A stretch of DNA of 40,660 nt. Source: Dimargaris cristalligena (Eukaryota). Position 1 is the first letter of the stretch. Every line of letters begins with the position of its first letter. A program made the position numbers and the translations under genes. Below are positions 1 through 29,994 of this stretch, in pieces. The notes beneath the pieces were generated by a model that ran no database searches, was not told the DNA's origin, and saw only the letters and a program-made list of their open reading frames with translations. The stretch covers positions 1 to 40,660 of the forward strand of contig ML002336.1 in the NCBI GenBank assembly GCA_003614675.1, given 5' to 3'.

Positions 1-1891
1 ATTGGATATCCCGCTTACTGTAATTGACCATGTCCAACGAAACGCGGAGGGTGGAGGCGCCGTAGAATTGGTAGGCCCCTTTGTACCGACCCCACAGCGA
101 GGAATTCAACAGGGTCACTTGGGCGGTGAGGGCCTGGTAGGCATGGACGATACCGCCGCCCTGTTGGGCCACGCTATGGTAGAGACCGTTGGCAAGACGG
201 ACGGGGGTACCGGTATTAAAGAGGGCCGAAACGAGGGTCTTGTTGGTGGATCCCTTGCCGGCTTCCAGTAACAGCGCGGTTACACCAGCCACATAGGGTG
301 CCGCCATGGACGTGCCGGACTTTATTCCGTATCCCCCCAGACTAGCGGGCAAGGTGGAGAAGACCCGCGAGCCCGGGGCGGCCAGATTGGGTTTGGCGCC
401 CCCGAATGGTGTCGGGCCCCAGCTCGAGAACCAGGACACGGTGTTCGCCGCCGGGTTATCAAACATGCTGTACTCGCTGCCCACCGTGATTTTGGTGGAG
501 GTGGCTGAAGAGGCAGTAGTGAGGGCGGAGAGTAGCTTCACACCATCCCGCTTTTCCACGGCGAAGACCGGTATGGTGATATCGGTGGTCAGGGCAACCT
601 CGAGCATCTCCTGGTCAATGTTATTGTAAATCAGCATTCCCACCGCACCGGCTTTGAGCAAATTGAGGGCCTTCGTATCAAACGGGCAAACGCCCCGCTG
701 GACCAGACCCACCTTACCGGCCATATTGCTCACCTCCGTGCAACCCAGATCGGTGCCCTGGGTGTCCCGAACCGATGCGAGGGACACGTTGGTTAAATTG
801 GCCGTCGCGTTGAATTGGCTCTGGAATGGCGTCCGGGCCATCTGCCACTTCGCATTAGGTGTCGTTACATTGACATAGTACGAGTAAAACTGCGGCGACT
901 CGGTTGCCCCCACTGAAATGCAGCTTGGAGCCACCGCGGGCGAGTTCATCGTGAACAAACCGCCCTGCCCGTCATTACCGGCCGCCACAATGACCATCCG
1001 TCCCTTAGCCATCAGGGCTTCGGCGGCCTGGGACTCGATCCAGGACTTCCAGCCGCTAGTAGTCCCGATGGACAAGTTGATGACATCCATATTGTCGGCG
1101 TAGGCCAGTTCCATGGCCCTGACCATCACATCGGAAGTGGTTAGTCCGGCGCAGCCCATCGCCTTGTAGATGCCCAAAGTGGCCTCAGGGGCCACCCCGC
1201 GGAACGGACCGTCGTCACCGGCGATAATCCCCGCCACATGAGTGCCGTGTCCCAAACAGTCATCGGTGGGCTTGGACTGGGGGGCCGGGTCGCTACCGGG
1301 TACAAAAGCTGGTCCTACTAAATCGGCACCATACTGCACGCGGCAGCCGGCCGTTTTATAGCACCGACCAAAGGCGGGGTGGTTAAGATCCAGTCCCGAA
1401 TCAATAATACCAATCTTGATGCCTTTACCCAGACGTTTCAGCTCCTGGTGGACCCGGGTGACCCCCGTGGCGGCATGTTCGAGCATCGGTAGGGGACTCA
1501 TGGTATGGTCAGGTAAACCCCCGGACGTGTCCAATGAGGTCAGTTCCAGACGCCAAATATCCGAAACGCTCCCCAGGCCGGCCATGGTTTCGGCGTGGTC
1601 CCGGTCGATTTTAATACTCTTGCCGTTGACCAGCGTGGTGTAGTTGTAGCGGACGGTAAAGGGAATGCCCGCGGTTTTCATTTGTTTATCAAAGTCACGG
1701 GCCGCTTGGCGACCCTCGGATGACTCCGGGTCGCCGGTAAATTGAACGACGAAAATGTTGGGGATAGCATTGAGCTGCCACTTGTCCATGGGGAACTGTG
1801 TGGTACCGGAAACGGGGGATTGGCCGTTGGACAGGGTTCCGGCGGCGAGCAGCGCCGCTGTGGTAAAAAGGGCCAAGCCTCGGTACATCAT
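1..1891 (-). CDS. Secreted subtilisin-like serine protease (S8A) with I9-like propeptide and PA domain; 3' end runs off the window
   Basis: Manually read minus-strand frame, not in the ORF track because no stop lies in the window. It starts at ATG 1891 (MMYRGLALFTTAALLAAGTLS, signal-like). Catalytic motifs: GIKIGIIDSGLDLNHPAFG (~1370-1425), GHGTHVAGIIAG (~1215-1250), VAAGNDG, SGTSMAAPYVAG (~285-320). PA-like GLVQRGVCPF and SWFSSWGP are also present. Confidence 0.93.
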   Translation of the reverse strand, partial: MMYRGLALFTTAALLAAGTLSNGQSPVSGTTQFPMDKWQLNAIPNIFVVQFTGDPESSEGRQAARDFDKQMKTAGIPFTVRYNYTTLVNGKSIKIDRDHAETMAGLGSVSDIWRLELTSLDTSGGLPDHTMSPLPMLEHAATGVTRVHQELKRLGKGIKIGIIDSGLDLNHPAFGRCYKTAGCRVQYGADLVGPAFVPGSDPAPQSKPTDDCLGHGTHVAGIIAGDDGPFRGVAPEATLGIYKAMGCAGLTTSDVMVRAMELAYADNMDVINLSIGTTSGWKSWIESQAAEALMAKGRMVIVAAGNDGQGGLFTMNSPAVAPSCISVGATESPQFYSYYVNVTTPNAKWQMARTPFQSQFNATANLTNVSLASVRDTQGTDLGCTEVSNMAGKVGLVQRGVCPFDTKALNLLKAGAVGMLIYNNIDQEMLEVALTTDITIPVFAVEKRDGVKLLSALTTASSATSTKITVGSEYSMFDNPAANTVSWFSSWGPTPFGGAKPNLAAPGSRVFSTLPASLGGYGIKSGTSMAAPYVAGVTALLLEAGKGSTNKTLVSALFNTGTPVRLANGLYHSVAQQGGGIVHAYQALTAQVTLLNSSLWGRYKGAYQFYGASTLRVSLDMVNYSKRDIQ

Positions 1892-4800
1892 GTTGCCTCA
1901 CGTTCGGATATAATAGGGAAGCTGGGCAGGTCCAGTCCAGGGGGTTTACTATCAGTACGATAGATGAATATAAAGAGTAAAATTAATGGAATAGGTAAAT
2001 AGCATAAAAACAAATTACGAGTAAGATGGGCATTAAATTGTGGTAGTTGAATGGCGTTTAATTACAGGGATAAAAATAATTTGTATAGTCGGCATTAATA
2101 ATAATAAACAGAAGCGGGTTGATGGGCGCCGGGCCTTCGGGGAGCTAGTAGGGCAATATAGCACCACAATATTGGTTATATAGATAAAATAAAACACATA
2201 AAGGTAAATTAGAAATGATGTGGCACTTAAGTATCGATGAGCAGGGCCAGTCGTTTATATGGAAACATGGTGAATCAAGCAGCACCCCCACACCCCCATG
2301 CTATCTCAACACGATCCAAGACAAAGAGTAACGGCCAGTCTTGTGCCAATTTACGTAGAAATTCATAGTTCGCGCGTCCATCATTGGTCGTGTCAATCAG
2401 TCTCTCTAGGTGGGAAAATGAACGCGGCTTTTCACCGGTAGGCCGGTGGGGCGATGGTCAGACTGGTACCTTCAATGTGCCCAAGCAAGGGTTGGCACTC
2501 ATTAGCCAGGGCCTTAGCCGGTACAAAAGGGACTGTACTATAGAAAAAGGGAGAGAGAGTGGGCTAGTATGGGCAAAAGGGTCTTCGCTGACGGCTCTGT
2601 ATCGGTGAGGCTTCCTCAGCCGTAAATCCTTTTGACTAACCTGGTCTTCACTCAGATAGGGTTAATCGCTCTTTTAACCAATCAATATTCACCGTAAATG
2701 GAGGTGTGATCCAATTTTAGAAAGATTAGTGGGTGAAGGTAATTCAAATTCCACTACCAGGGCGATTGGACGGTAGGCGTCCACTGGCTCTTTTGTACAC
2801 AATACTGGTCATCCCCTCTCCCCCTCCCCAAAGTAACGGTGCCTGGAGGAGTTTCAATACAACCGTTTATAGTAATTTTGCATAAAGTGGCGAAGGGGAT
2901 GGCCAATGGACGTTCCATGGTTTCAAGCCAGAACGACATGCTCCTGAAAATACTGTATCCGGTGTACTGTTAGGTTGGACTTAACATACATATGCAACAG
3001 CCTTTACTACGGGGAGCGCCTTATAATAAGAATAGTCCCACCAGCCTTGCAGGTACGACCTGGGTGTTGTAGAGATTTTCACCCGGTCATTACTAAAAAT
3101 AAATAAGTGGGCGAATTGGGCCAAGAGTCAGTAGATATTCTTAATTCACCATTACCAATATGACATTTGAAAGCACTATATTCGCCACTTGCACTTCAAA
3201 ATAATGTTCTATATTGCGAGATCAGACGGGGCTATAGAGTCGTATAAATAAATATGCGAACTTGTCTATTATATTATATATTTCATTTAACCACACTTAC
3301 CTTCAATTGAGGATTGGGTTTATTACAAGAGGAGTCAGGCTTGGAGACATTAGGTAGAATGTATGAACCCCGTGGACTATATTTGGTTTTTATCTTCCTG
3401 CTCAGCCATCCCTGCTTAACCACCAACTTAACCCAGCGCCTGACAGTAAACAAATGTCGTATATATCAAAAGGCTGTAGCTGTAACTGTCCCTGTTTAGT
3501 ATGACCAGTTGTTCGGAGTTCAATTGCATGGTGGAGACAAGTTAGGGGCTGCCCTCTCCACTCCCTCCGAAGTGCCGCTGGCACTAATAGATGCAGGGGG
3601 CAACCCCTCTCCCCAGACTTACACCTTGATTACAGAAAAAGAATGGCTCCAAAAACCCCAAGTTGATTTATGATTTGAAATAAGGAATATTAAAACTCTT
3701 GCTAATACTATACTTCATCTGGTCCCTAAAACTGGCAACATTCTCCCCGATTCTCACCAATGTCCGTCGTGCCTTCTAAAGAGGTAGCGCCGGATAGATT
3801 TTAATGCGTATTGGTGATTGATTGCCTTTGTGCCGATCAATTGAAGTTACCAAAAAGGGTACATGGATCCTGGCGTATATCTAAAGTAGCCCCGTGGTAA
3901 TTTTATAGTTCGTTTTTATTTCAGTTAAGTCTTTTTCTAAGAACGACCCCAGCCATTGACCCATCCTAGAATAGTATTTGGCTAGGCTTGAGTGTTATAC
4001 GTTTTAGATCGAAATTTCCTATTGAAGTAGTTTCCATAAAACTGCACTTTAGAATAAATATAGGTGTGATAGCGGGAAGGGAGGAGGGGCGAGGAATTAG
4101 AAAAGCAGGCTATTCATTTGGCTGAACAGGATGTGTGGGGGTCCCCCTAAATTACCTAATGATGCCATTCGTAGATGTGTTGAAAGAATAGAAGCGATAT
4201 GGGACTGCTTTGGCTTGATAATTCCGGGTACAATTTGACCATTTCAACATTCTATAACATCGTGGGGGAATCCTATTCCCAAATTAAATATTACACATGT
4301 CTCTGTGGTGACGAATTTGCCTCCCCATCCCCCCTGCCTGCATTTTATTGGACGCTGAGGAGTAGTTTCTTACTATGGCGGGAAGCCGAGTGGGGACTAA
4401 GTAAACTAGTAAACACCGAGGAGGGTTATTTATGGAGAAGATATATAAGTTTAAAATAAGTATTTTATTGAAACATGAAAATCTTTTGGGTACGTGAGTT
4501 GTCCCTTCTTTTATATCTATATCTCGGGTATCTGGGTAGAGTGACTGCCGTTCGTTGCTTGTTCTGAGGGGGCCGCTATAGTGAGGGAATTGGATGGAGC
4601 ATTCTCATTGGTTGGGATGAGGGGTCGTTCTGACTCGGGGTTGTCCGCCCCCTCTGAGGGTTGCATTACATCCATTCCCCCTTGCTTACTATGTCAGCAA
4701 CAGCAAGCTATTCCACCAAGCAGTTTCACACAGTACACTTGAGCAGAGGAATGTGGTGAGACATTTCATAAGCCAATTCCCATTCGAGCCCACAGGTGGA

Positions 4801-16563: not shown

Positions 16564-18690
16564 TCCCCTACCCACTTCCTCTCTAGTCTACTCCGAATTT
16601 ACTGAATTTAATATACATATAGATATAGATATAGATATCGTCACTAATTGTTTAATGACATTGGCGTTGTGTTGGAAAGAGTTATACTTCACATGCTAGT
16701 CGCGATCGTTCCTATTGTCAGAGAAAATCAGCGTGACCCACGGGACTCCACTCCTATTTGTAAATTAGATACTTACTCAATATTATATTTTGTAGTAATA
16801 CTTCACGATGACCGCAGAAACAGTACACAAGTCAACCCCTTGGTTTCAGAAGCCCAGTGTCACGCCAGTGCCTTGTATTAGGTCATTAATGGCTGGTTCA
16901 AGCTAGTGGACCAACCATTACTGGGCCACTAATGATTATAATTACACGTGGCAGAGTCTGAATGCAATGATATTAACGTCAAAGTGACACAGTTGGGTAC
17001 TTTGAAGGACACAATCTCTAACAGTATATATAAAAACACCGCAGTGCTGGGGCCTAAAAAAAGAGAGGGTATACATGAGTATGTGCAAAAATATGCTGGG
17101 ACATTATCCATTGGCTCCTCAAGGGGCTCTGGTGGGATACTTATATTGACCTTGGATAACAGAAATGAGTGGTCTTAACATGGTGCCAATGTAGGTTTTG
17201 ACCAACCTTTAGAGTTACCACCGCTGCCACTCATGCAGGGTCTAAATCCATATACCGAAGATTCAACAGAATATTGGAGAACAAGGCTGTCAAAGCCACC
17301 CTTAGCTATATAATGTGGGAGAAGTTCATCCAAGCTGTATAACGAAAAATTCATTAGATTCGGCCAATATTACTAGTTAAAAATACATTTCCCATATATT
17401 TTCCCATACACGTATAATGTAAACCCTTATATAGCTGGGCCGAATTTTACCCATGTCTTTGGAGTCGTCGCTAAGCAATTAGTCATTGTGGCCTGAAGCT
17501 CTACCACCGATCCTGGAGTCCTAGTCGTACCGATGATTGCCGCATGCAACAGTCAGTATCCCTACAAATTAGGAGTAACTGTATCTTTTTGGCCCTCTTA
17601 TTGACATTTTCGTAAGTCAATCTTTTTCCTATATATTATTTTTGCCGTATTGCTGCATTTGATCGGCTTAAGATCCTAATGTGATTTACGTTCTTCATTT
17701 AGTTGTGAGAGTGACTTAATCTACCCATCTACAAGATCGTACTAACCCGCCAAAGGTTCGTTATCTTCAGTGTCGGCAACGAATAGTCACCCGACTTGAC
17801 TTGCCTATAGTATTCAAAAATATACAATGCGATAGTCGTGCCTATTCTTTCAAAAAACCAGGGCCTATTTCTGCAAGCCGTGGGGCGCTGAAAAGAGATG
17901 TAAGCAAAATAATAGAACTAATTAACGACTTAGACCATTTACTATCGTACGGTGAATGGTTTTAGTCTTTATATTCCAACGGGTGCTCTATGCATTAAAT
18001 GAATCATCCCTATTACAGTAAATCAAAATCTACCATAAATCCACAGTGACTGGCGAAAGATGATACCAATGGTAATCAATAATGACCGGCCCCAGAAACA
18101 CACACCTCTCAGCCAACGATCCGCACTTAAATTCGGCCGAAAATCTCAGCAGGCTGATTACCCGACAGAGGGATGGGGTAGAATGGAATAGGGGATGGGC
18201 CATTAGCCTTCCCATTTTCTGTTAACGTCCATTTCTAGGACTGATTTACGGACGAAATAATGCAGTAATATTATCCTTGCACCTCCCCTTCTCCAAACAA
18301 TCCTAGACACCAAGTTGCCAAGAGTTCCCTCTGAAGTAATATATAGGCCGTCGAGCCCGGCAACCCCCCCCTAAAGCTACCCCTACCTCTCTTAATCCAA
18401 TTAATTTTATGTGAATCCCCATTTATAATTACGTATCTCTAATATTTAATTTGTTGCCTAGTTATTACTTTAGTCTATCGATTTCTTTTTTAAGTAACTA
18501 TACATCGTGATTACTCTTTATAGTGGCCATAGTCTCGCCAGTCCGGCGAGGCCGATATTCCGCTCTTACAAATCGCAAGATTCCGCTTTTAGCTCTTTAT
18601 TAGGCCATTGGAGAGATGCATATATTTTTGTGTCCCAACTGCCCCTATCACTAATCAATCCACGTTGCACACTCCCTTAAATTGCCCCTA

Positions 18691-21456
18691 ATGGCTAGGA
18701 AGGGTCTAATTTGGCCCTCCTTGGGTTGCATTATATACTTCTGCTCGCATGTCCTAACATCCCCCAGTACGTCCACAACGGTACCCAACTATTACATAGT
18801 CAACCTCGAGGGTACCCCGGGTTCGACCGAGGCGCAAACAAGTTACCTTGGCATGGTCAACAAACTCCAGTCGCTCGGAATATCGTACACCAGCACCCAC
18901 AATTTCACCGAGCTCATCAACGCCGCCAGTTTCTACTTGGAAGACCAATATGTCGACGCGATTACTTCTTTGCCCATGGTCAGTGCCATTTGGCCAATGC
19001 GTCTCACCAGTTTAGATAGAACCCCCCTCTCGGCCAATAGTGCCACTAATCAAACCGCCTCCTCCCTAACCCGGCCCCCGCGTGCACTATTGGAGCACTA
19101 CTACACGGGTGTAAACTTCGCCCACCAAGCCCCCTATAATCTCACCGGCCGTGACATCAAAGTCGGTGTTATCGATTCGGGAATAGACTACCACCACCCG
19201 GCTTTTGGTTCATGCTATAAAACGCCCGGTTGCCGCATCCAATATGGCTACGATTTTGTGGGCGACCAATTTAACGGCACCAATGTCCTTCAACCCGACG
19301 ACGATCCGCTGGATACATGCAACGGGCACGGCACTACCGTGACCGGTATATTAGCTGGTTATGACAGCGGTACGGACGGTGAAGAGACGTATAAAGGGGT
19401 GGCCCCGGATGCGATACTGGGTATTTATCGGGCGCTGGGCTGTTCCGGATTGACCAACAGCGTGGCATTGATTCGGGCGATTGAGCAAGCGTACGTCGAC
19501 GGTATGCAAATCATCAATATTTCGGTGGCCACGGCCAGTGGGTGGGATGCATGGTCAGAGGCCAAAGTGGTCCAGGAATTCAGCAACCGGGGCCGTATTG
19601 TCGTTTCAGCCGCCGGTAACAGCGGTCTGGATAACATGTGGAGCGTGTCGTCGCCGTCGATTGCGCTAGGGTGTATATCGGTAGGGTCGGCTGAAATGCC
19701 GCGCCATTATTCCTATTATTTGGATATTCAACCCGAGTCTTCGTCAAACGCCTCCCATTCCGATGGCCAAAACAATACGGTCCAGGTCCAACGGAGTGAT
19801 TGGCAAGCCCAGTTACCACCACTCAATCTCCAGAATGTGGCCCTGGTACGGGGTCTGAATGACGAGGGTGACGACTTCGCCTGCACCAGCCTACCTTCAC
19901 TTACCGATAAAGCTATCTTGGTCCAGAGGGGCACTTGTAGTTACAACGTCAAAGCCAAAAACGCCCAAGCCGCCGGAGGGGTCCTCCTTATCATCTACAA
20001 CAACGAGCCGGGAACAATGGCCGACATGGATTTGAATAATACTATCACTATACCGGCCGTCTCCATCTACCAAGTCGACGGTTTGGTTCTTGTCCAAAAC
20101 CTGACCACCTCCGAATACTCTAGTGACCCGCCGACCTTGTCAGTGTCGACCAATCCCATCGATGTGGCCGTATTTGACAATTATTTACCGAATTCGGTAT
20201 CCTGGTTTTCATCCTGGGGACCGGCTGCCGGAAACCACCTCAAACCCAATCTGGTGGCCCCGGGTAGTAAAATCTATTCGCCCCGCCCGCTCAATTTAGG
20301 CACGTACGATTTGGCTTCGGGCACCTCCATGTCTTCCCCCTACGTTGCAGGAGTCGCCGCCCTCCTATTGCAGCAAATGAGTGCCATCTCTGTCAGTAGT
20401 GGGGATGATTCGAACTACACCGACGTGTTCGCCCGTATTGTCCACACTGCTGATGTGATTCGAATGGCCCAAAACGGGACGGCTCTGTCCGTTGCCCAAC
20501 AGGGCAACGGGGTCATCAATGCTTTGAGGGCTCTTCAGACTGCTGAACTATTTGACCAGCTGAGCTTGAACGCCGGCTTCCGGAACCAGTCTCTCTCCTC
20601 TTCATCCGATTCAGAGTGGTCATACTCCGTGAGCGTGTGCCATACCGACCAGTCCGCGCCTTCCACAACTTACCAAATAGAGTACATTTCCGCTCTTTCA
20701 GTGACAGCGTTCGACGACGACAATGTTTTGCTTCCAATTCCTTTTCCGGGTGCTAGCCAACCGACGATTGGCTTCGACCTAGAAAACACTACCAAGGGGA
20801 TTACGGTGGAGAGTGGACAGTCCTGTACCGGCCTGACTTTCTCTGTGGATATATCCAATCTCCCGTCCGATCATTTCTGGCTCTACAGTGGCTATATCCA
20901 TGTCTATTCCTCCACCAACCTGACCAACGACTCGCCGTTTGGGCTGCCCAATCCCCTAGCGGGCCCTGTTAGCAGCATCACCCTCCCACTCCAGGGCTTC
21001 AGTATCGCTTTAGACGACCTGCCTATGTTTTCCAACCTCCCCGCCGACCAGCCCCAACTCGTCCACCCCGACACAAATGACCCAGTAACTCCGGGAACCG
21101 CCTTTTCTTTCCAAAACTTGGATCGACCGGTCATTCAGCTGCGCGTCCAAATCCCCCTCTACCGCATTCGCATTCGGATTGCTAAGCCCGAAACCCCCAA
21201 TCACCCGTCATTTACGGCCACCGAAAACCAGCTCACTTACCTCAAGAAAATTGTGGACGGGACGGGGGGCGGCACGTACAAGTATACATGGAATGGATCG
21301 GTGTATACGTTTTTGAATCCGGAGAAGGTGTTTGCGTTGTTTGATCGGGAATGGGTACTGCAGTTGCTGTTTACTTCCGATGGGGCGGAGGGGGCCCCGG
21401 AAAAGTATTGGTATTCGCCAACTTTTAAGACGAACAGGGGGATAACAAATTCATAA
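18691..21456 (+). CDS. Secreted subtilisin-like serine protease (S8A) with I9-like propeptide, PA domain and C-terminal beta-rich extension
   Basis: First ATG at 18691 followed by a signal-like segment. Catalytic motifs VGVIDSGIDYHHPAFG, NGHGTTVTGILAG, SAAGNSG, SGTSMSSPYVAG. PA-like ILVQRGTCSYNVKAKNAQAAG. Paralog of the gene at 1-1891. Confidence 0.93.
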   Translation: MARKGLIWPSLGCIIYFCSHVLTSPSTSTTVPNYYIVNLEGTPGSTEAQTSYLGMVNKLQSLGISYTSTHNFTELINAASFYLEDQYVDAITSLPMVSAIWPMRLTSLDRTPLSANSATNQTASSLTRPPRALLEHYYTGVNFAHQAPYNLTGRDIKVGVIDSGIDYHHPAFGSCYKTPGCRIQYGYDFVGDQFNGTNVLQPDDDPLDTCNGHGTTVTGILAGYDSGTDGEETYKGVAPDAILGIYRALGCSGLTNSVALIRAIEQAYVDGMQIINISVATASGWDAWSEAKVVQEFSNRGRIVVSAAGNSGLDNMWSVSSPSIALGCISVGSAEMPRHYSYYLDIQPESSSNASHSDGQNNTVQVQRSDWQAQLPPLNLQNVALVRGLNDEGDDFACTSLPSLTDKAILVQRGTCSYNVKAKNAQAAGGVLLIIYNNEPGTMADMDLNNTITIPAVSIYQVDGLVLVQNLTTSEYSSDPPTLSVSTNPIDVAVFDNYLPNSVSWFSSWGPAAGNHLKPNLVAPGSKIYSPRPLNLGTYDLASGTSMSSPYVAGVAALLLQQMSAISVSSGDDSNYTDVFARIVHTADVIRMAQNGTALSVAQQGNGVINALRALQTAELFDQLSLNAGFRNQSLSSSSDSEWSYSVSVCHTDQSAPSTTYQIEYISALSVTAFDDDNVLLPIPFPGASQPTIGFDLENTTKGITVESGQSCTGLTFSVDISNLPSDHFWLYSGYIHVYSSTNLTNDSPFGLPNPLAGPVSSITLPLQGFSIALDDLPMFSNLPADQPQLVHPDTNDPVTPGTAFSFQNLDRPVIQLRVQIPLYRIRIRIAKPETPNHPSFTATENQLTYLKKIVDGTGGGTYKYTWNGSVYTFLNPEKVFALFDREWVLQLLFTSDGAEGAPEKYWYSPTFKTNRGITNS

Positions 21457-21558
21457 ACTATTTTCCGCAGGAATACATGTTAAGTTGTACGAGGAGTACT
21501 GGAGGGATTGGTTTTTCCCGAAATATCCGTTTTGAAGTAATGCAATACTATAATTAAG

Positions 21559-22419
21559 TTACATTAAGTTCCAATTGCCTTTTGTGAGGGGAGTGAATTT
21601 AAAAGCAGTTGGCACTCTTTATAAGAAGGCGCTGTCCTTGCCTGTGGGATTCCCAAATTCCTCTAGACAACTATTACATGGCAACCTCGGGCTTGACATT
21701 TTAATGACTATCATGTGTGATAGTCCCACTGAAAGAACCAGGCTCCTTGGTTTATTGGCTGAAGCTTGAACTGTGACTATTAATTATTTAGCAACGACTT
21801 GGACAATGCTCTTCAATTGCGTGTGGTTAGCAACCCTGTTTTCTAATATCCCACCAAGGCTCCATGAGGAAATTGCGGTCTATATCACAATTTCATTATG
21901 TACACTTCTATACGTTCTCATTTCTTCGGTGCATGGCGCACGGGTATTTAAATATATGGTGTCAGAGAGCACTTCCGCCAGAGTACCTCGCTCTAACTCT
22001 ATTTCCCCTATGACTATATCCAGACAACTGCTTAACCAATACCATCTCAACAAAATAATCTCGTGTGGAATCCAATATTCTCTTTGTGGTGGTTTCCATT
22101 GCCAGTCTACTGAGTATCCCCCACTCATTTCCCTCCGTATAGCATTGTCGAAAGACCCCACGGTCATTAACTGCAACCTATAAATAGGGAATTTTGTGTG
22201 TTTTAGTAAGCATCCCATGTGGGTTAATGCAGCACTTGAGTAGCTAACCCCAGCAACAAAAATATCGACTATAAGGCCAGTTGTTCTCCAGGAAAGATAA
22301 ATACATAAAGGGAAAGTATAACCATACAACATATATGAATTAGCTGGTGACTTTGGGGAATACCTACTGGAATAGGTAAACCTGGACACAGTATCTTTTC
22401 CAACTGGTAGTGGGTGCAA
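21559..22419 (-). pseudogene. Decayed coding relic of unknown family
   Basis: The 21880-22419 ORF frame continues past stops at 21880-82 (TAG), 21784-86 (TAA) and 21619-21 (TAA) with protein-like sequence (TAISSWSLGGILENRVANHTQLKSIVQVVAK*LIVTVQASANKPRSLVLSVGLSHMIVIKMSSPRLPCNSCLEEFGNP...) to a TAA at 21559. No recognisable family. Confidence 0.4.
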
Positions 22420-24258
22420 TGGGGGGAGGGAGGGGGGGTGGATAACAAGTACCCTAGTTAGTCCTTGTAGTTAACTACTAACACATAAATAGTATGCACC
22501 ACTTCTGCTCAAAGTGTGGATTATAGGAAGCACTGGATTTCTAGCAGAAGGAAAGAGGGAAAAAAATCAAGGGGGAGAGGGTACCCATGAGGTATCCATG
22601 GACTACTTTGGCCACATCTCCTTATTACTGATGGGTTTAATATCCACTGGCATCATAAATTCACCCAAATTTGTGAACACATAGGCGGTACTTAAACATG
22701 GGGTATAGGGGGGGGGGAGTATAGAGCTATTTGTGGATTCAGATGAAGTAGAGTTTTATTTAAAGTGAATATAAGGTAGGCAACCTTTTGGTCATAATTT
22801 ACCATCCACAGGGAACATATTAAAGGGTAAGTGGCTCAAAAACCCTCAAAAGCTACATATAAAGAGGGAAAGGACATGGGGAGGATAATAAACAGACCCT
22901 GGGAAGAAATCAGGCCCTTATAACAACCTACCCAACTTAGCTGGATAGGGGTTATTATTATTATCAGTAAAGTGGGGGGCCACAGGACAAGGTCTTTGCT
23001 AAGGTAGAAAAAATAGTGCTAAACTAAGTAACTAGCCTATTGGACTATCTAATCTACCTTAATCTAGACACAGTGGTGTCCATCTCCATTAGGCCTTATA
23101 GCACCATATTAACCTTCCCATGGTCACCCCCAGTACTATGGGATCATCCCCTATCATATAACTATTTCCCTTTTAGGCTCTGCTGCTTTGTACTAATTAC
23201 TCTGGTGCTGATCTGAAGACTCTTCTGGTTACTATCAGAGTCTTTTAAGTCCTCATGGTTATCTGGTTGGCCTATTTATCTTATCCTAGTCTTAGTAGTA
23301 TCCTTCTCTTGGGACCTCCCTCTGGAGTCATCCCCACATATATATAACTGGGCCCCATTGGGACCAGTTTGGGGCCTTAGCTTATTATTATCCCCTAGTT
23401 TATCCTAATAAACCCTATATACACTCATCACCCTTGTATTGACTAGTAAGTGTGCTCACTACATGTCCTTTACCTGTACCTACATTTTGTAGCCTTTATT
23501 AGTTAGTACTATGCCCCCTACCTAATGCCAAGACCCACTTAGCCCAGCCCAAGCCCCATCTGCCATTAGAAGCCTATCCTTAGGACTCTTGACTGACTAA
23601 GAGTGGTTAACCTAGGCAATAGTACAGTACTACAGTTTATTTTATGGGAGGGTAGTGATAAAAAAGTATAAAATGAGCAGGGTGTCTTATGCTAAGTAGC
23701 TGAGCATCATCTTTTAATAACTTTCTCTGTGCATTGGATTATTCAGCCCCATATCCACACTCTCTCATATCCACTTGGTTCACAAAATTCACACCAGACT
23801 ATTTCTGTAATAACTTAGCTGCCTGTAGTACCCATCCACTTCACCTGTCTGTATTTACTCTGTTAAACTGAGACTTACCTGAACCTCCACCATACAACCT
23901 CAGCATATAAACCTTCTTGCTCTGGTTACCCTTAGTCTCTCCCCCAACAGCTACAACTGGGTTAGTGCAATGGAAGACAAACAGCCTGGTGATGGATTGA
24001 TGAAAAACTTCATGATGAAACTGCACAGCATTTTTGGTGGTAAAGGTGCCCCTAGCCCAAGCTATACAAAGGCTGATCTACCTGAATGGGACTATGAAGG
24101 CATCTTAGACTGGGATTTGGGACCTGAGCCCACTGGAAGAAAGTGGACCTCCAAAGAAATACTGAACTATATATCTGAGCAACCCATTGCACCAGTCCTG
24201 GTAAGTCTTAAATGTATTTTACATACCCCACCATGGCTAAATAGATATAACTCATATT
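22268..24258. other. CpG desert (methylation- or RIP-like mutated domain)
   Basis: By eye, only one CG dinucleotide (22686) in about 1,990 bp, although C and G runs are plentiful. Flanking genes are CpG-rich. Confidence 0.85.
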
Positions 24259-25854
24259 CGCATGCCTGGATAGGGCGCACCAATGAATTAAAGGGACTTG
24301 CCAAGGAATACCCTAATCTGTAGCTGTGTAGCAGCAACTCCGATATTTTCATAACCATTGATGTCTGTTCTATCCACACTATGCATATATGTAGATGACA
24401 AGCATGAATGTCATACAAAAAATCTACCCCTCTTGACATAGTGTGCTATTTCTATATGGATACTAATTTGCGCCTTAACTACACGTATTATTTCATCCAC
24501 TCACAACTAGAAAACTTACCGTCAATTGCAAGTTGCCTTGAAAGCCTACCCCGAACTTTCCGAATCGGGTTATGCATCGGGGAATGTGGTTTCTAATGAG
24601 CTTCCTTGGCCCAAACGTATAACAATGATACCCAAGTTCAAGAAATCGGTCCGGAATTCATTTGTTCCCTGGTAAACACTGCTCCATTACCAATTGGCCG
24701 TCGGATACTGGAGACAAACCTGTCGCATGATAGAAATCGTTTATGGTATGGATGTCGATACATTAGACCTATCAAAATCAATCAGTGCTACCAAGAAACT
24801 TGATGCCTTCGAGATCAAGGCAATTGCCCAAGGTAGTGGCGTCCTCAAAAAGGATGCATATCGATTCATCGATCTGACCGAGCTATGGAAATTGGACCCA
24901 GCAAAGCAGTTACCGTTCTTGGCTCTTGTCGACTTCGCTACCAATCCCGAAGATATTGTCAATCTTTTTTACGACCTGGTTAACCGTTCATTTGATTTTC
25001 TCGTTCATCGGGACTGGGCCAAACAGTTCCCGGCGCTCAAATATGGGGACGGCCCCCTGTCGGATTTGGTCAAACAGTTTCAGCTTAAGAATCTCAGGCT
25101 TGAAGCGGGATTTACTTACTGGGATATGTTTGAGAGCGTGACGGCCATTATAATGGCATGGTTGGCCCTAACGGAGAAATTCGATTACATGGATTTCTTG
25201 GTGAAAAATATTCAAAGAGCTGGAAAGCATTACGCCAATGGCGCTGTTCGTAAACAGACAACCAAGAACCTCGAAGCGGCGGGCATAATGCTGTTGGCTA
25301 TGACTGAACAAGGTAATCGTATTGATAATATGTTATACTTCTTCTCATTTATTGGACCCGATGAATCTAAGGCAATTAATGACCCCAAGCCGAGTGTCGT
25401 GGATTGCAGTATAATCGGTGAAATGCGCCAACTTGGTTTAATCAAGGGTGCGGACTATCTTGAGAAAACCAAGGAATGCAAGAATTCTGAAGATTCCGCT
25501 AAATATTTTGCTGGCAAAATAGCCAATCCGGATTTTGCGCCCCTCCGGCAGCTGCGACTTCTGGAAGAAGTTGACAAGCCTTGTATGAGCGTACCGGTTA
25601 TGATTTCAGAGTTTGATGCGAATACCAAAAGTCAGCTTGCGGACTTGGGGCCTTGGGAACATGATACATATTGGAAGTTGGGGCAATCGTTTGCTGACAA
25701 TCATAGCCATAAATATTGGATGATCGGGAATTCGGTTGATAAGGACACTGAAGATGTGAATTTGGCGACTGGGCAATCACCAGATGACGCCCACAAAAAT
25801 GCACCGACGACGGATGGGATATGGTATACTGAACTTAACCCCGATTTGCAGTAG
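23892..25854 (+). pseudogene. Disrupted gene for a lineage-specific secreted (effector-like) protein; reconstructed exons 23892-24200, 24294-24362, 24511-25854
   Basis: ccACC-ATA at 23892 opens a signal-peptide-like frame (IQPQHINLLALVTLSLSPNSYNWVSA) continuous with ORF 23970. Donor GTAAGT at 24201. Exon 2 has an in-frame TAG at 24321-23. The acceptor CTAG at 24510 starts a frame (KTYRQLQVALKAYPELSESG...) continuous with the 386-aa ORF except for a TAA at 24673-75. Exon 2 boundaries (AAG acceptor, GTCTGT donor) are weak. Confidence 0.6.
24694..25854 (+). CDS. Remaining intact 3' reading frame (386 aa) of the hypothetical secreted protein
   Basis: Long open frame with globular, helical composition and normal CpG content, followed by a T-rich 3' region. 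No recognisable domain. Confidence 0.55.
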   Translation: MAVGYWRQTCRMIEIVYGMDVDTLDLSKSISATKKLDAFEIKAIAQGSGVLKKDAYRFIDLTELWKLDPAKQLPFLALVDFATNPEDIVNLFYDLVNRSFDFLVHRDWAKQFPALKYGDGPLSDLVKQFQLKNLRLEAGFTYWDMFESVTAIIMAWLALTEKFDYMDFLVKNIQRAGKHYANGAVRKQTTKNLEAAGIMLLAMTEQGNRIDNMLYFFSFIGPDESKAINDPKPSVVDCSIIGEMRQLGLIKGADYLEKTKECKNSEDSAKYFAGKIANPDFAPLRQLRLLEEVDKPCMSVPVMISEFDANTKSQLADLGPWEHDTYWKLGQSFADNHSHKYWMIGNSVDKDTEDVNLATGQSPDDAHKNAPTTDGIWYTELNPDLQ

Positions 25855-28800
25855 AACCAAATCCAGTATGCTCGTTTACCAATATTATTTCACGATATTT
25901 TCCTCTATTTTATTTTTCAACTCACTTTCGTTTATTTAGTTAGACGACTTTGCTTTGTATATGTATGCTCCCTCCGTAGAAATAAATATCTATTAAATTA
26001 ATCATATTTGACCATTATTGTGCTATTGGGTACTTTGAGATAACTATTCCGACTATGCGCTCTGGTGTGGAAGTAGGTGGTGGTGTTATTAGAAATAAGT
26101 ATCTCTCTTCAGTTTAATTGCCGATAGGGGGGGTTCCAGTTCAAATTTAAGGAATAGTACCTTCAAATACATGGAAAACACCAAATGTGAGTTTTTGGTA
26201 GGATACACTTGCTTAACTATGTCACCTACCTGTAACAATATACCATAGGGCCCTTCGAAAGCGTATTTTATTAGCAGCATATAAATAAACAAAAAACGGA
26301 GGCACCTTACTCTTTTTTTTTTGCTGCTAGTTGTTAGGGTGAGCGTATGGTAGCAACATTTATAATGCCTTGGACTGATTATAGCTTAAATGGCACGCGT
26401 AAATCGTTAACAAATGTCAGTTTGAAATAAACTTATCTCATTTATCAGATAGGTGAGCCCCCAAACCAACGGACCAAGGGAGCTTCAATGGTTCGGCGCT
26501 CGAACACCACATGTAAATCCATTGAGTGGAATTCTACTAGGCTGGGATGACTGTCAACGGGGATTTGGTTGTAATCGAGGAGTGGTACCAACCATAGGGA
26601 AGATTACGTCTAAACAAAGGGTATTAACCAGTGGTAGACTTATAGTACGTACTATTGAATATACTGGGGAATCAATAGGAGGTGACCTGGAGGAGTATTG
26701 AAGGACCTCGTAGGACGGACAAATTAGAAAAAAGAATGGCAGCATTGGAGGGTACCCTCTGACCACGGGAAGGCGCTCAGAGAAATGGTGGAAACTGGCG
26801 GAGTAGGCCTCTAAGTATCGGTAGGGATAGGTAATGGATTGCATGTATAGTATTGGACGTTGCTATAGGATAAATACCGTGGCAGTCATGGAGCCGGTTA
26901 TGCTTCACTGTAACATATAATACCCATTTGTTTCAAAGGTGTCAATATCAGCATTAGTTTAGGGTGACAGGGGCATCGATGTTTTTAGCATGTTCCCAAC
27001 GGGCTATAAAGGCACGGTGTCGTATTTATCTAGCAGGCTAGGTGTCGTAGGTTGAATTATAGAAAATATTAAAACGCCCTATTCCTAGGACAAGTCCATA
27101 GAGGGACATTGGAATCATGGTTTCAAATCGTACTTTATAAAATAATGAATGGGAGTACTAGGGGTTATTTGATCAGTAAGTTAAACAGCGAGGAGCAATT
27201 GAATAATTGATCCATTAACTGGGGCTAGGTAATATATATATGTATGGCTTTATAGGGCCAAGCACACAGTTGGGCCATACAACAGGGCCAGTTAAGATGG
27301 TGTTAAAGGACACTACCAGAAGATAAGGCACGTAGATAATGGATAGTGAATAAGTGGTGATAGAGTACGGATGTTTAATAGACGCATGAGAAAGACCGGG
27401 GGGGGGTTCAAAGGCGATTAAACTGCTTCGGCCATTGATATACTGCGTCCCATGGATAAGACCTGGGCAGTTCAGAAACTGCGACTTGGATGTCATCAAT
27501 TTTAAGATTATTCGTTAAATACGATGCATTATATACTGCTATATTATTAGACGCCCTTCGCAACATGGGTTTGAGCAACCTTAAGACTATTATTATTTGG
27601 TGTAGGCTATTCTGGTACGTATGGGAGGTTATAACTTGTGGTGGGAATCAAATGTTTATTCGTGGGGTTATACATGACTAAGCGCTTGGGATTCGGGGGA
27701 ATCTATTTATATGATATGCCGACAGATGAGGCGGATGTGTTCATAAGATCTCTATCGATATTTATACCGCCAACTATGAATCGTGAAGCTAGGAGTGGGG
27801 GTAGTCCAACAATACAGCACCATAAACAGGAACGTTCTTTGGAAGACTGGAGATGTAATACTATGCAAGTAGGAGATACACCGGGCCATTGATAAGAGAT
27901 ATATATTGAACAGTATACTAACCGGAAGCCTTCGCCAGGCTTAGGGTGGAGGCTATGTGCCCTGCAACGGAGTGCTTGTCTGGTGAGGAGAAGTTAAGGT
28001 GGACCTGGTATAAGGGGAAGAGATGTTGTTTGGCCGGGTTGGTTTCCAGTGCAGTTTGCATTAGTTCCGCATTGACCATACAGTTAGGCCAGGCAGCCCA
28101 TCCGCTACACAAGGCATACTGTCCCGTCTCCTTCTTATTATTTTCTTTTCTTTTTTTCATTCAATTGTGGTGTAAAAAGACCAGCGGCCGGGCTGGAAAC
28201 AGAAGATGGTGTGTTGTACCAGATTGCCGCTAGTACATTTAATACACGGGGCTTATTAAACCCCGACCCAAAGCATACGCCATGCTGAAGCCCGCGGCCA
28301 GGGGAAGCGGAACCGACCATACTTGGAAAGATTGGTGTGGGCCCAGGAGCATTAAAGTGCTGTACATATGCAAACATTGCTACAGACGTGGGAAGGCGGT
28401 AGATGGGCACACCAGCTAGCCATAGATGCCAACCCAACCTCTTCTTGGCTTTAATACCTCAGTAATCTGCCGCCCCATATACATCATCACCACCCACTCC
28501 ACTCTATTACTACATACTTCTCGTATATACCATCTCTATTTACATACAACGTACCTTTGGAAAACCCCCCAAAGTATGAATCTTCCCCTTATTGGGGGAT
28601 CGCAGTTCTGTTTGACCCCGGTTAACAAGGTGCCTCGGACCACGGCTGCTGACAGAGGACGACGGCGCCATGAGTCTCTGGCGGCATTTTGGAACTGGTG
28701 GCTGCTGCAGTGCCGGTACACCCGGCTAAAAGTTGGGTCACAAAAATAGAACGCACTCACCTTGGGCTATGCAGAGTCGCTCAATAGTGCAATCCCGACC

Positions 28801-29544: not shown

Positions 29545-29994
29545 ATGCACTTCACTACCCTCAAATCCTTCATGGCTCTTACCATCGTCGGCATTGTCTT
29601 CACCTCCCTTGTGACCGCTCAACAGGACGGCCGCCGTGGCCGAGACGGTAAAGATGGGCAGGACGGTCAGGATGGCCAAGACGGCGGCGAATCGGACCAG
29701 GTCATCATGGAAGCCCCGCCCATGGCCGCCGCCGCCGCGGTCGCTGTCCCCGCTGGCGGTTACGTCCAGGCCCCGGCTCCGGCCCCGGTCTACCCCGCCT
29801 CGGCCACCCCGACCCCATCGTGCACCAAGAAGCCATCCGGCTATGTCGCGGCCGATCCCCCGGCTCCCGCCCCCGCCCCTACCTCCACTCAGAAACCCCA
29901 GGGCTATGTCACCGCTGCTCCCCCCGCTCCCGCCCCGACCTCCATTCAGAAACCCCAGGGCTACGTCACCGCTGCTCCACCCCCAGCTTATTAG
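29545..29994 (+). CDS. Small secreted Pro/Ala-rich protein with short collagen-like G-X-Y run and three KPxGYV repeats
   Basis: Signal peptide MHFTTLKSFMALTIVGIVFTSLVTA; GRR-GRD-GKD-GQD-GQD-GQD-GGE; repeats TKKPSGYVAADPPAPAP, TQKPQGYVTAAPPAPAP, IQKPQGYVTAAPPPAY. Strong C/G-ending codon bias. Confidence 0.8.
   Translation: MHFTTLKSFMALTIVGIVFTSLVTAQQDGRRGRDGKDGQDGQDGQDGGESDQVIMEAPPMAAAAAVAVPAGGYVQAPAPAPVYPASATPTPSCTKKPSGYVAADPPAPAPAPTSTQKPQGYVTAAPPAPAPTSIQKPQGYVTAAPPPAY
29818..29988 (+). repeat. Three imperfect ~57-63 bp coding tandem repeats
   Basis: cagaaaccccagggcta(t/c)gtcaccgctgctcc occurs twice nearly identically, plus one diverged copy. Confidence 0.8.

Follow-up and report, generated by a model that had tools for sequence, protein, structure and literature searches.

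Introduction

Young unitary pseudogenes of lineage-specific, effector-like families, lying beside transposable elements (TEs), constitute the closest described counterparts of the locus considered here, namely a gene at 23892-25854 on the plus strand of a stretch of 40,660 nucleotides (nt) from Dimargaris cristalligena (Zoopagomycota), a fungus parasitising other fungi. This stretch, hereafter called the window, corresponds to positions 1 to 40,660 of contig ML002336.1 in the assembly GCA_003614675.1, and all coordinates refer to it. The family to which this gene belongs has been found in D. cristalligena alone and, as in those counterparts, is expanded, species-restricted and endowed with an N-terminal leader, while one member combines the loss of its start codon with a nonsense codon, a repeat lies 272 nt upstream of it and some relatives are patchy. 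As judged from sequence comparison, the best explanation of the whole is probably that the locus is a young pseudogene of this species-specific family of secreted-looking proteins. As a pseudogene it is ordinary in kind, and the part worth following is the CpG-free halo in which its 5' end is embedded.

These counterparts, products of birth-and-death evolution in parasitic fungi, differ in that their proteins are small and cysteine-rich, whereas the Dimargaris proteins are large (~450-630 amino acids, aa) and helical; here, moreover, the host is itself a fungus and the family is a candidate for a role in parasitism. Three further systems known from other fungi offer points of comparison. In the Pezizomycotina (Neurospora, Leptosphaeria), leakage of repeat-induced point mutation (RIP) similarly involves repeat-centred transitions reaching a unique gene for a secreted protein, but the present locus belongs to a different phylum, the target is CpG and not CpA, no drop in G+C is seen and the lesions stand outside the CpG pattern. 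In the Sordariomycetes, genes restored by adenosine-to-inosine (A-to-I) editing share with this one an otherwise intact open reading frame (ORF) cut by a stop, although here the stop is UAA and not UAG, a start loss is added and the phylum is again different; to our knowledge, such restoration of premature stops has been described only there. As regards methylated transposons, CpG methylation of transposon-rich regions (DNMT1/DNMT5-type), CpG depletion and the silencing of flanking genes are treated in sections of a review on Basidiomycota (PMC13297926). The likeness lies in a strictly CpG loss centred on a high-copy repeat, its spread over a few hundred bp into unique DNA and an excess of TpG in exon 1, the difference in that the pattern is here read from base composition and that the repeat has no excess of TpG or CpA.

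Gene Structure and Disabling Changes

The gene model was drawn from paralogue alignments, combining tblastn of the paralogue proteins on the window with MAFFT, and comprises two exons separated by one intron:

23892-24200, plus strand: exon 1, 103 codons, no CpG, with the L-P-x-x-x-x-x-x-I-L-D motif and the TSK...P...L block common to the paralogues
24201-24510, plus strand: intron, 310 nt, phase 0, GTAAGT donor, CTAAT 44 nt before the end, CTAG acceptor
24511-25854, plus strand: exon 2, 447 codons and a TAG stop (25852-25854), one frame, normal CpG content
23892-23894, plus strand: ATA in place of the family start codon (M in 10/10 paralogues at alignment column 1, I (ATA) in the window)
23892-23969, plus strand: hydrophobic leader, signal-peptide-like by inspection, 26 codons, now without AUG, maximum Kyte-Doolittle(9) 2.61
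23970-23972, plus strand: internal ATG, start of a public 474-aa model, matching the Met right after the leader in P0031
24673-24675, plus strand: premature TAA, directly after the W of the conserved W-x-x-L-L-x-H-Q block

Block 1 of the window, IQPQHINLLALVTLSLSPNSYNWVSAMEDKQP, finds its counterpart MLPQRINILALVALGLSLNVYGSVSAMEDDQP in P0031, the closest leader-bearing paralogue, with which exon 1 aligns by BLASTP at E 2e-13 (residues 3-58 on 3-58); similarity in exon 1 and leader is also seen with P0003 (E 5e-4) and P0007 (E 2.3e-4). At the exon junction, ...EQPIAPVL at the end of exon 1 pairs with ...AHPSGAIL of P0003, which continues after GAIL with PTYHKLQVGLKHY, while the window's KTYRQLQVALKAY begins at 24511. 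The paralogues are collinear over this junction (...GAIL, then PTYHKLQ, with no residues between), their matches to the exon 2 frame in the HMMER search begin at query residue 3, their tblastn alignments to exon 2 keep to a single frame, and tblastn with the paralogue proteins detected nothing family-like in the 310-nt intron. Since the four other candidate introns of the window, with GTAAGT, GTATGT or GTACGT donors and a branch motif, are 137-330 nt long, the length of this one is ordinary here; the 474-aa public model shares it. Each exon aligns in one frame, so that no frameshift needs to be invoked, as already noted in the preliminary description of this locus, and the intact 3' part noted there corresponds to an ORF of 392 codons (1.18 kb) open at 24676-25854. 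By contrast, the TAG at 24321-24323, which the same description had counted among the lesions, ends a frame running from 23883 and lies, by the homology-supported model, within the intron, where it is no coding defect.

The first of the two disabling changes affects the start codon. The sequence ACC ATA at 23889-23894, in frame with the ATG at 23970, 26 codons downstream, was found as originally reported, and as a TGA stands in frame upstream of the ATA (23880-23882), no ATG farther upstream would be usable. The proposal that the ATA is a lost start ATG holds against the paralogues, all 10 of which have Met at this site, and against the P0031 leader alignment given above. While ACCATG was indeed found at the start of intact genes (11971 and 40444), the window contains 32 copies of the hexamer ACCATA for 25.5 expected, i.e., at near-chance frequency, and it is thus the paralogue alignment and not the Kozak-like context that gives meaning to the ATA. 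A Met followed by a short hydrophobic stretch opens 10/10 full-length paralogue models (maximum Kyte-Doolittle(9) 1.7-3.2), and where models with H4R33 locus tags are short at the N-terminus, their BJ085 counterparts do carry the leader. The leader junction, ...SVSA followed by MED(D/K)QP, is common to the window and P0031, and the secretion signal was judged by a hydropathy heuristic together with the look of this ...VSA-M junction.

The second change, the TAA at 24673-24675, breaks a frame that is otherwise open over 24511-25854. Paralogue alignments by tblastn cross it in one frame (P0004, P0006, P0007, P0008, P0010, P0013, and P0020), and the residue facing it is Q in 5/7 and H in 2/7 of these direct alignments; counting each gene once (n=10), six genes have Q, two have H, and W and R occur once each. 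Gln in most paralogues (6/10), like Met at the site of the ATA, is the outcome that had been named beforehand as support for these lesion calls. Splicing around the TAA by means of a GT...AG intron at GGTAAAC (24672) was considered and rejected, the two nearest acceptors both recreating a TGA, as examined by eye.

Both changes recur in assembled reads. Contigs of four read sets (X1, X2, X3, and X5; three samples from two studies), one of which may be the source of the window, were placed on 21500-26500. No letter other than that of the window occurs in X1 over 23583-26500, in X2 over 23564-26500 and in X3 over 23564-25958, the only gap being a 1-nt difference at 26458. As the contigs of X1, X2 and X3 carry the same letters, the stops are no assembly slip of this record, and the concern raised at the outset that they might be sequencing or assembly errors is not borne out by these three sets. 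From 23620 onward, the gene is single-copy at at least 90% identity in the four read sets. The same contigs reveal that the window is one base longer at 22708 (X1, X2, and X3) and at 26458 (all four runs), neither position being within the gene; the extra base at each place is probably an error in the assembly of the window record, or else marks a difference between strains. A/G at 21602, in run X1 alone, is the only listed single-copy substitution in 5 kb, and the sequenced strains are therefore nearly identical here.

Annotation and State of Decay

Both public assemblies annotate the locus as intact, each with a different model, for which two further features are needed:

24617-24766, plus strand: second intron of the 474-aa model, 150 nt, GTATAA...TTAG, no CTRAY motif in it
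24727-25854, plus strand: ORF of 375 codons opened by the first ATG downstream of the TAA, the model of the second public assembly (P0001, 375 aa)

The 474-aa model (P0029) can be rebuilt exactly from exons 23970-24200, 24511-24616, and 24767-25854. Its second intron takes out 50 codons, including the TAA, from a stretch that aligns to the conserved block of the family, and is probably an annotation device, to judge from this alignment. The two public models conflict, each sidestepping a lesion, as gene predictors commonly do when faced with a pseudogene. If so, both would represent proteins that the ancestral gene never encoded, with consequences for family counts and secretome predictions of this mycoparasite.

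The in-frame codon log-likelihood ratio (LLR) reaches 0.29 per codon in the 3' ORF, compared with 0.21-0.42 for nine known genes of the window, and amounts to 0.16 in exon 1 and 0.12 in the 54 codons before the TAA; the family-conserved Cys and Leu positions are kept in the window copy. As only two disabling changes are present in 550 codons, with no frameshift and no further stop, the inactivation would be recent. Alternatively, the 3' part may still be in use.

The CpG-Free Zone and the Upstream Repeat

The 5' end of the gene lies in a zone from which CpG has nearly vanished, and which was correctly recognised as a CpG desert in the preliminary description. Its extent and composition are as follows, with counts of CpG given as observed/expected:

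22266-24259, no strand: CpG desert, one CpG (22686) in 1994 nt, covering the repeat and its single-copy flanks on either side, as well as the promoter, the whole of exon 1 and the intron's first 58 nt
22739-23619, no strand: repeat cluster, a mosaic of very high-copy short modules, CpG-free, no ORF
Left of the desert: CpG 19/34.3
Single-copy left flank: CpG 1/20.3
Repeat: CpG 0/37.6
Promoter: CpG 0/9.7
Exon 1: CpG 0/16.0
Intron: CpG 5/10.7
Exon 2: CpG 66/67.8
Other intergenic DNA of the window: CpG ratio 0.68-0.90
TpG observed/expected ratio (o/e): 1.81 in exon 1 vs 1.22 in exon 2
CGN among Arg codons: 0/1 in exon 1 vs 12/15 in exon 2
NCG among NCN codons: 0/22 in exon 1 vs 25/97 in exon 2
C before a codon starting with G: 0/28 in exon 1 vs 29/142 in exon 2

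No other CpG-free gap in the window exceeds 193 nt. The loss is centred on the repeat, which ends 272 nt upstream of the gene, and takes in 473 nt of unique DNA on the left side and 639 nt on the right. The repetitive nature of the cluster is apparent from the summed word depth (4e3-8e4, vs ~40-180 in the single-copy flanks) and from the single-copy contigs, which end at 22766/22767 and restart at 23564-23583; it has no tandem or inverted structure, no tRNA or Rfam feature and, within the window, no other copy. In exon 1, the composition is the footprint expected of CpG-to-TpG change. Outside it, the promoter has a TpG o/e of 1.30 and the left flank a CpA o/e of 1.28. In the MAFFT alignment, His5 and the Trp of RKWTS in the window face Arg in some paralogues, which would fit a change of CGN to CAY or TGG, though as an anecdotal case.

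The base skews reverse within the desert near 23000, with G>C and A>T on the left and C>G and T>A on the right, and the dinucleotide excess is mirrored in the same manner (left flank with CpA at 1.28; right flank and exon 1 with TpG at 1.30-1.81); no inverted repeat accounts for the reversal of skew. Towards the left flank, two ORFs at 21770-22183 (plus strand) and 21880-22470 (minus strand) were considered as genes and, with codon scores near zero and no Pfam match, treated as non-coding.

Origin of the Lesions and Status of the Gene

As for what we infer from the above, i.e., the loss of function, the mechanism and the sequence in which events took place, the following course would account for the locus. 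The ancestral gene would have consisted of two exons, 23892-24200 and 24511-25854. A change of the start ATG to ATA would have left no AUG before the leader and a Gln codon of the conserved block would have become TAA, blocking the full-length product. With the promoter and exon 1 sitting in the CpG-free halo of the abundant repeat cluster 272 nt upstream, a CpG-directed C-to-T decay linked to silencing of the repeat would have been at work, most simply by deamination of CpG methylation spreading ~0.5 kb into the flanks. The same process would have worn down exon 1 and probably silenced the promoter, with selection relaxed. The two disabling changes are themselves ordinary transitions at non-CpG sites, apart from the CpG pattern, as neither lesion lies at a CpG.

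The process suggested in the preliminary description was instead RIP, or RIP leaking from the adjacent repeat, with the lesions as its CpA-to-TpA products. In its favour, the two genuine lesions are C:G to T:A transitions, the differences listed between copies of the repeat are transitions in 33/40 cases, 17/33 of them in CpA/TpG-to-TpA contexts, and the mutated zone reaches unique flanks, like RIP leakage in ascomycetes. Against thresholds of TpA/ApT > 0.89 and (CpA+TpG)/(ApC+GpT) < 1.03, the repeat is nominally RIP-positive (1.44 and 0.99), but exon 1 is negative (0.86 and 1.55) and the promoter gives 1.33 and 1.03. The contexts of the lesions are dictated by the codons, since any change of ATG to ATA is TpG to TpA and any change of CAA to TAA is CpA to TpA, and are thus uninformative on the process; by way of caution, RIP should not be read from stop-codon contexts. 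Moreover, CpG is the sole dinucleotide erased, CpA and TpG being no rarer than expected in the flanks and in exon 1 (o/e 0.86-1.81 overall), G+C is not lowered (0.39-0.46 vs 0.41-0.46 in other intergenic DNA), the TAA lies 414 nt outside the desert in DNA of normal CpG content (66 observed, 67.8 expected), and the duplicated DNA is confined to the upstream repeat, the gene being single-copy as stated above. D. cristalligena, as a zoopagomycete, stands outside the groups with established RIP, and the parts of a kingdom-wide survey bearing on this point regard Neurospora-type RIP as probably limited to a few ascomycetes (PMC12543289). Taken with these properties of the locus, RIP as the maker of the lesions is highly improbable. 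Nor does it seem credible, save at the very margin, that the ORF is restored by A-to-I editing (AUA to AUG, UAA to UGG), by stop readthrough or by initiation at the near-cognate AUA. Both lesions do have adenosines preceded by U, the AUA stands in a good ACC context and no further lesions have accumulated, but the UAA requires two edits, initiation at AUA would still run into the TAA, and the restorative editing of Sordariomycetes belongs to another phylum; we know of no readthrough context of the form UAA-A.

A third possibility concerns the product, namely that the gene is functional but shortened and non-secreted, either as in the 474-aa model (ATG 23970, intron 24617-24766) or as 375 aa from ATG 24727, with a promoter of its own or by reinitiation. 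Its merits are an open 474-aa frame exactly reproduced from the DNA, a 150-nt segment divisible by three with GT...AG ends, a 3' ORF that is intact, coding-like in codon usage and faithful to the family-conserved residues, and a G at both -3 and +4 of the ATG at 23970. We nonetheless regard it as unlikely: the proposed second intron deletes 50 codons aligning to the N-terminal block best conserved in the family and has a GTATAA donor and no CTRAY motif, whereas intron 1 and the four other candidates have GTAAGT, GTATGT or GTACGT together with a branch motif; the shortened form would lose the leader found in all 10 full-length paralogues; two independent disabling changes in one gene are unexpected under selection; and the two annotation sets contradict one another.

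Several points nevertheless weigh against a recently inactivated gene and against the mechanism proposed for its 5' end. The 474-aa model is formally open, and a functional truncated protein would likewise be expected to have an ORF such as this one, 392 codons long, normal in codon usage and with its conserved residues kept; the locus is known here from DNA, paralogue proteins and public models. X5, which covers 23627-26500, differs from the window by 1 letter whose place was not located, and the read evidence consists of assembled contigs, in which minor variants are dropped. D. cristalligena has been suggested to be non-haploid in a passage of PMC10386755, and, with evidence of this kind, an intact second allele may exist. 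The repeat itself shows no excess of TpG (o/e 0.91) or CpA (0.86). Finally, CpG methylation in D. cristalligena is putative, proposed from the CpG pattern and by analogy with Basidiomycota; a search of the literature on Dimargaris and DNMT returned no paper on both among the matches listed, and no more than an indirect hint comes from a CDCA7-type factor mentioned in two Kickxellomycotina in part of 10.1101/2023.01.30.526367.

The sharply bounded CpG-free zone, which reaches from a very abundant repeat into unique DNA, is a concrete, testable sign of a genome defence aimed at CpG, in a phylum with few studies of cytosine methylation. A much wider conjecture, on the whole doubtful, is that this zoopagomycete, outside the Dikarya, possesses a repeat-centred and strictly CpG-directed hypermutation, methylation-driven or due to a RIP-like enzyme, which would wipe CpG from high-copy repeats, leak ~0.5-0.6 kb into unique flanks, recode (e.g., Arg CGN to His/Trp) and silence the 5' ends of neighbouring genes, and so drive the turnover of a secreted, possibly F-box-like family used against the fungal host.

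Family, Protein Product and Genomic Neighbourhood

The extent of the family was established by an exhaustive HMMER protein search (E<=1e-3), using as query the frame 24511-25851 with the TAA read as X. Among 27 matches at this threshold, 17 correspond to the window's own product and 16 paralogue clusters, all of which carry D. cristalligena names and derive from two assemblies (locus tags BJ085DRAFT and H4R33); the other 10/27, i.e., long TPR-rich or other repeat proteins matching over many short stretches, were set aside as spurious and their organisms left out of the species count. The best paralogues over the exon 2 frame are P0003 (E 5.7e-55) and P0004 (E 3.8e-50), which match in the C-terminal ~400-aa domain. 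A word-index protein search returned the window's own product as the sole match. With Pfam, the ORFs of the locus gave no match (DctP at E 0.11, below its cut-off) and 11 family proteins gave nothing at E<=0.01, nor at E<=10 except for a P450 piece on the fused P0031. The family proteins, ~450-630 aa long, start with a short hydrophobic leader and further contain an L-P-x-E-L-L-x-x-I-L motif and an all-helical, repeat-like domain of ~400 aa. The depiction of the locus as an effector-like secreted gene is accordingly supported as regards a secreted-looking, lineage-specific protein, given 17/17 family matches in D. cristalligena and a leader that is hydrophobic by hydropathy and inspection. With several members looking decayed, this species-restricted family combining a leader with helical repeats makes a reasonable candidate set for host interaction in a haustorial mycoparasite.

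Five members, P0005, P0010, P0017, P0024, and P0025, are represented by nothing more than short or patchy models (65-261 aa), and P0010 aligns to the window as three separated pieces; such models suggest further decayed copies and a birth-and-death turnover. Another annotation problem in the family concerns P0031 itself, whose model in one assembly (718 aa) includes a fused piece of a cytochrome P450, while the other assembly divides the locus between two models, one partial (563 aa) and one of 140 aa (proteins P0031, P0004, and P0030).

An alignment-based structure model of the exon 2 product (21 rows) predicts helices and a small sheet, with a predicted local distance difference test (pLDDT) of 68.6 and a predicted template modelling score (pTM) of 0.76; the single-sequence model (pLDDT 39) is of no use. 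Foldseek with the exon 2 model gave 0 matches at E<=0.001. In a wide structure search, the best Z was 10.8, to designed helical repeats, which for helical repeats is below the level that the tool considers meaningful, and the predicted likeness is generic. A sequence-profile search of PDB returned nothing relevant (one irrelevant match at E 0.44). An F-box identity is not supported by profiles, no F-box profile being found in 11 family members (Pfam E<=10) and none in the PDB profile search; the leads to it are the source name "F-box domain-containing" on two members, language-model neighbours (score 0.92, with a low count of shared features) and the L-P-x-E-L-L-x-x-I-L motif seen by eye.

Elsewhere in the same 40-kb window, two large subtilases with a PA domain (Peptidase_S8 and PA) are encoded at 2-1897 (minus strand) and 18655-21456 (plus strand), in agreement with the high subtilase counts in Dimargaritales that appear in part of PMC9866270. 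At 29803-29979, in a G+C-rich stretch, a 57-nt unit is present three times in tandem, the units being 67-91% identical, and is probably a proline-rich coding repeat.

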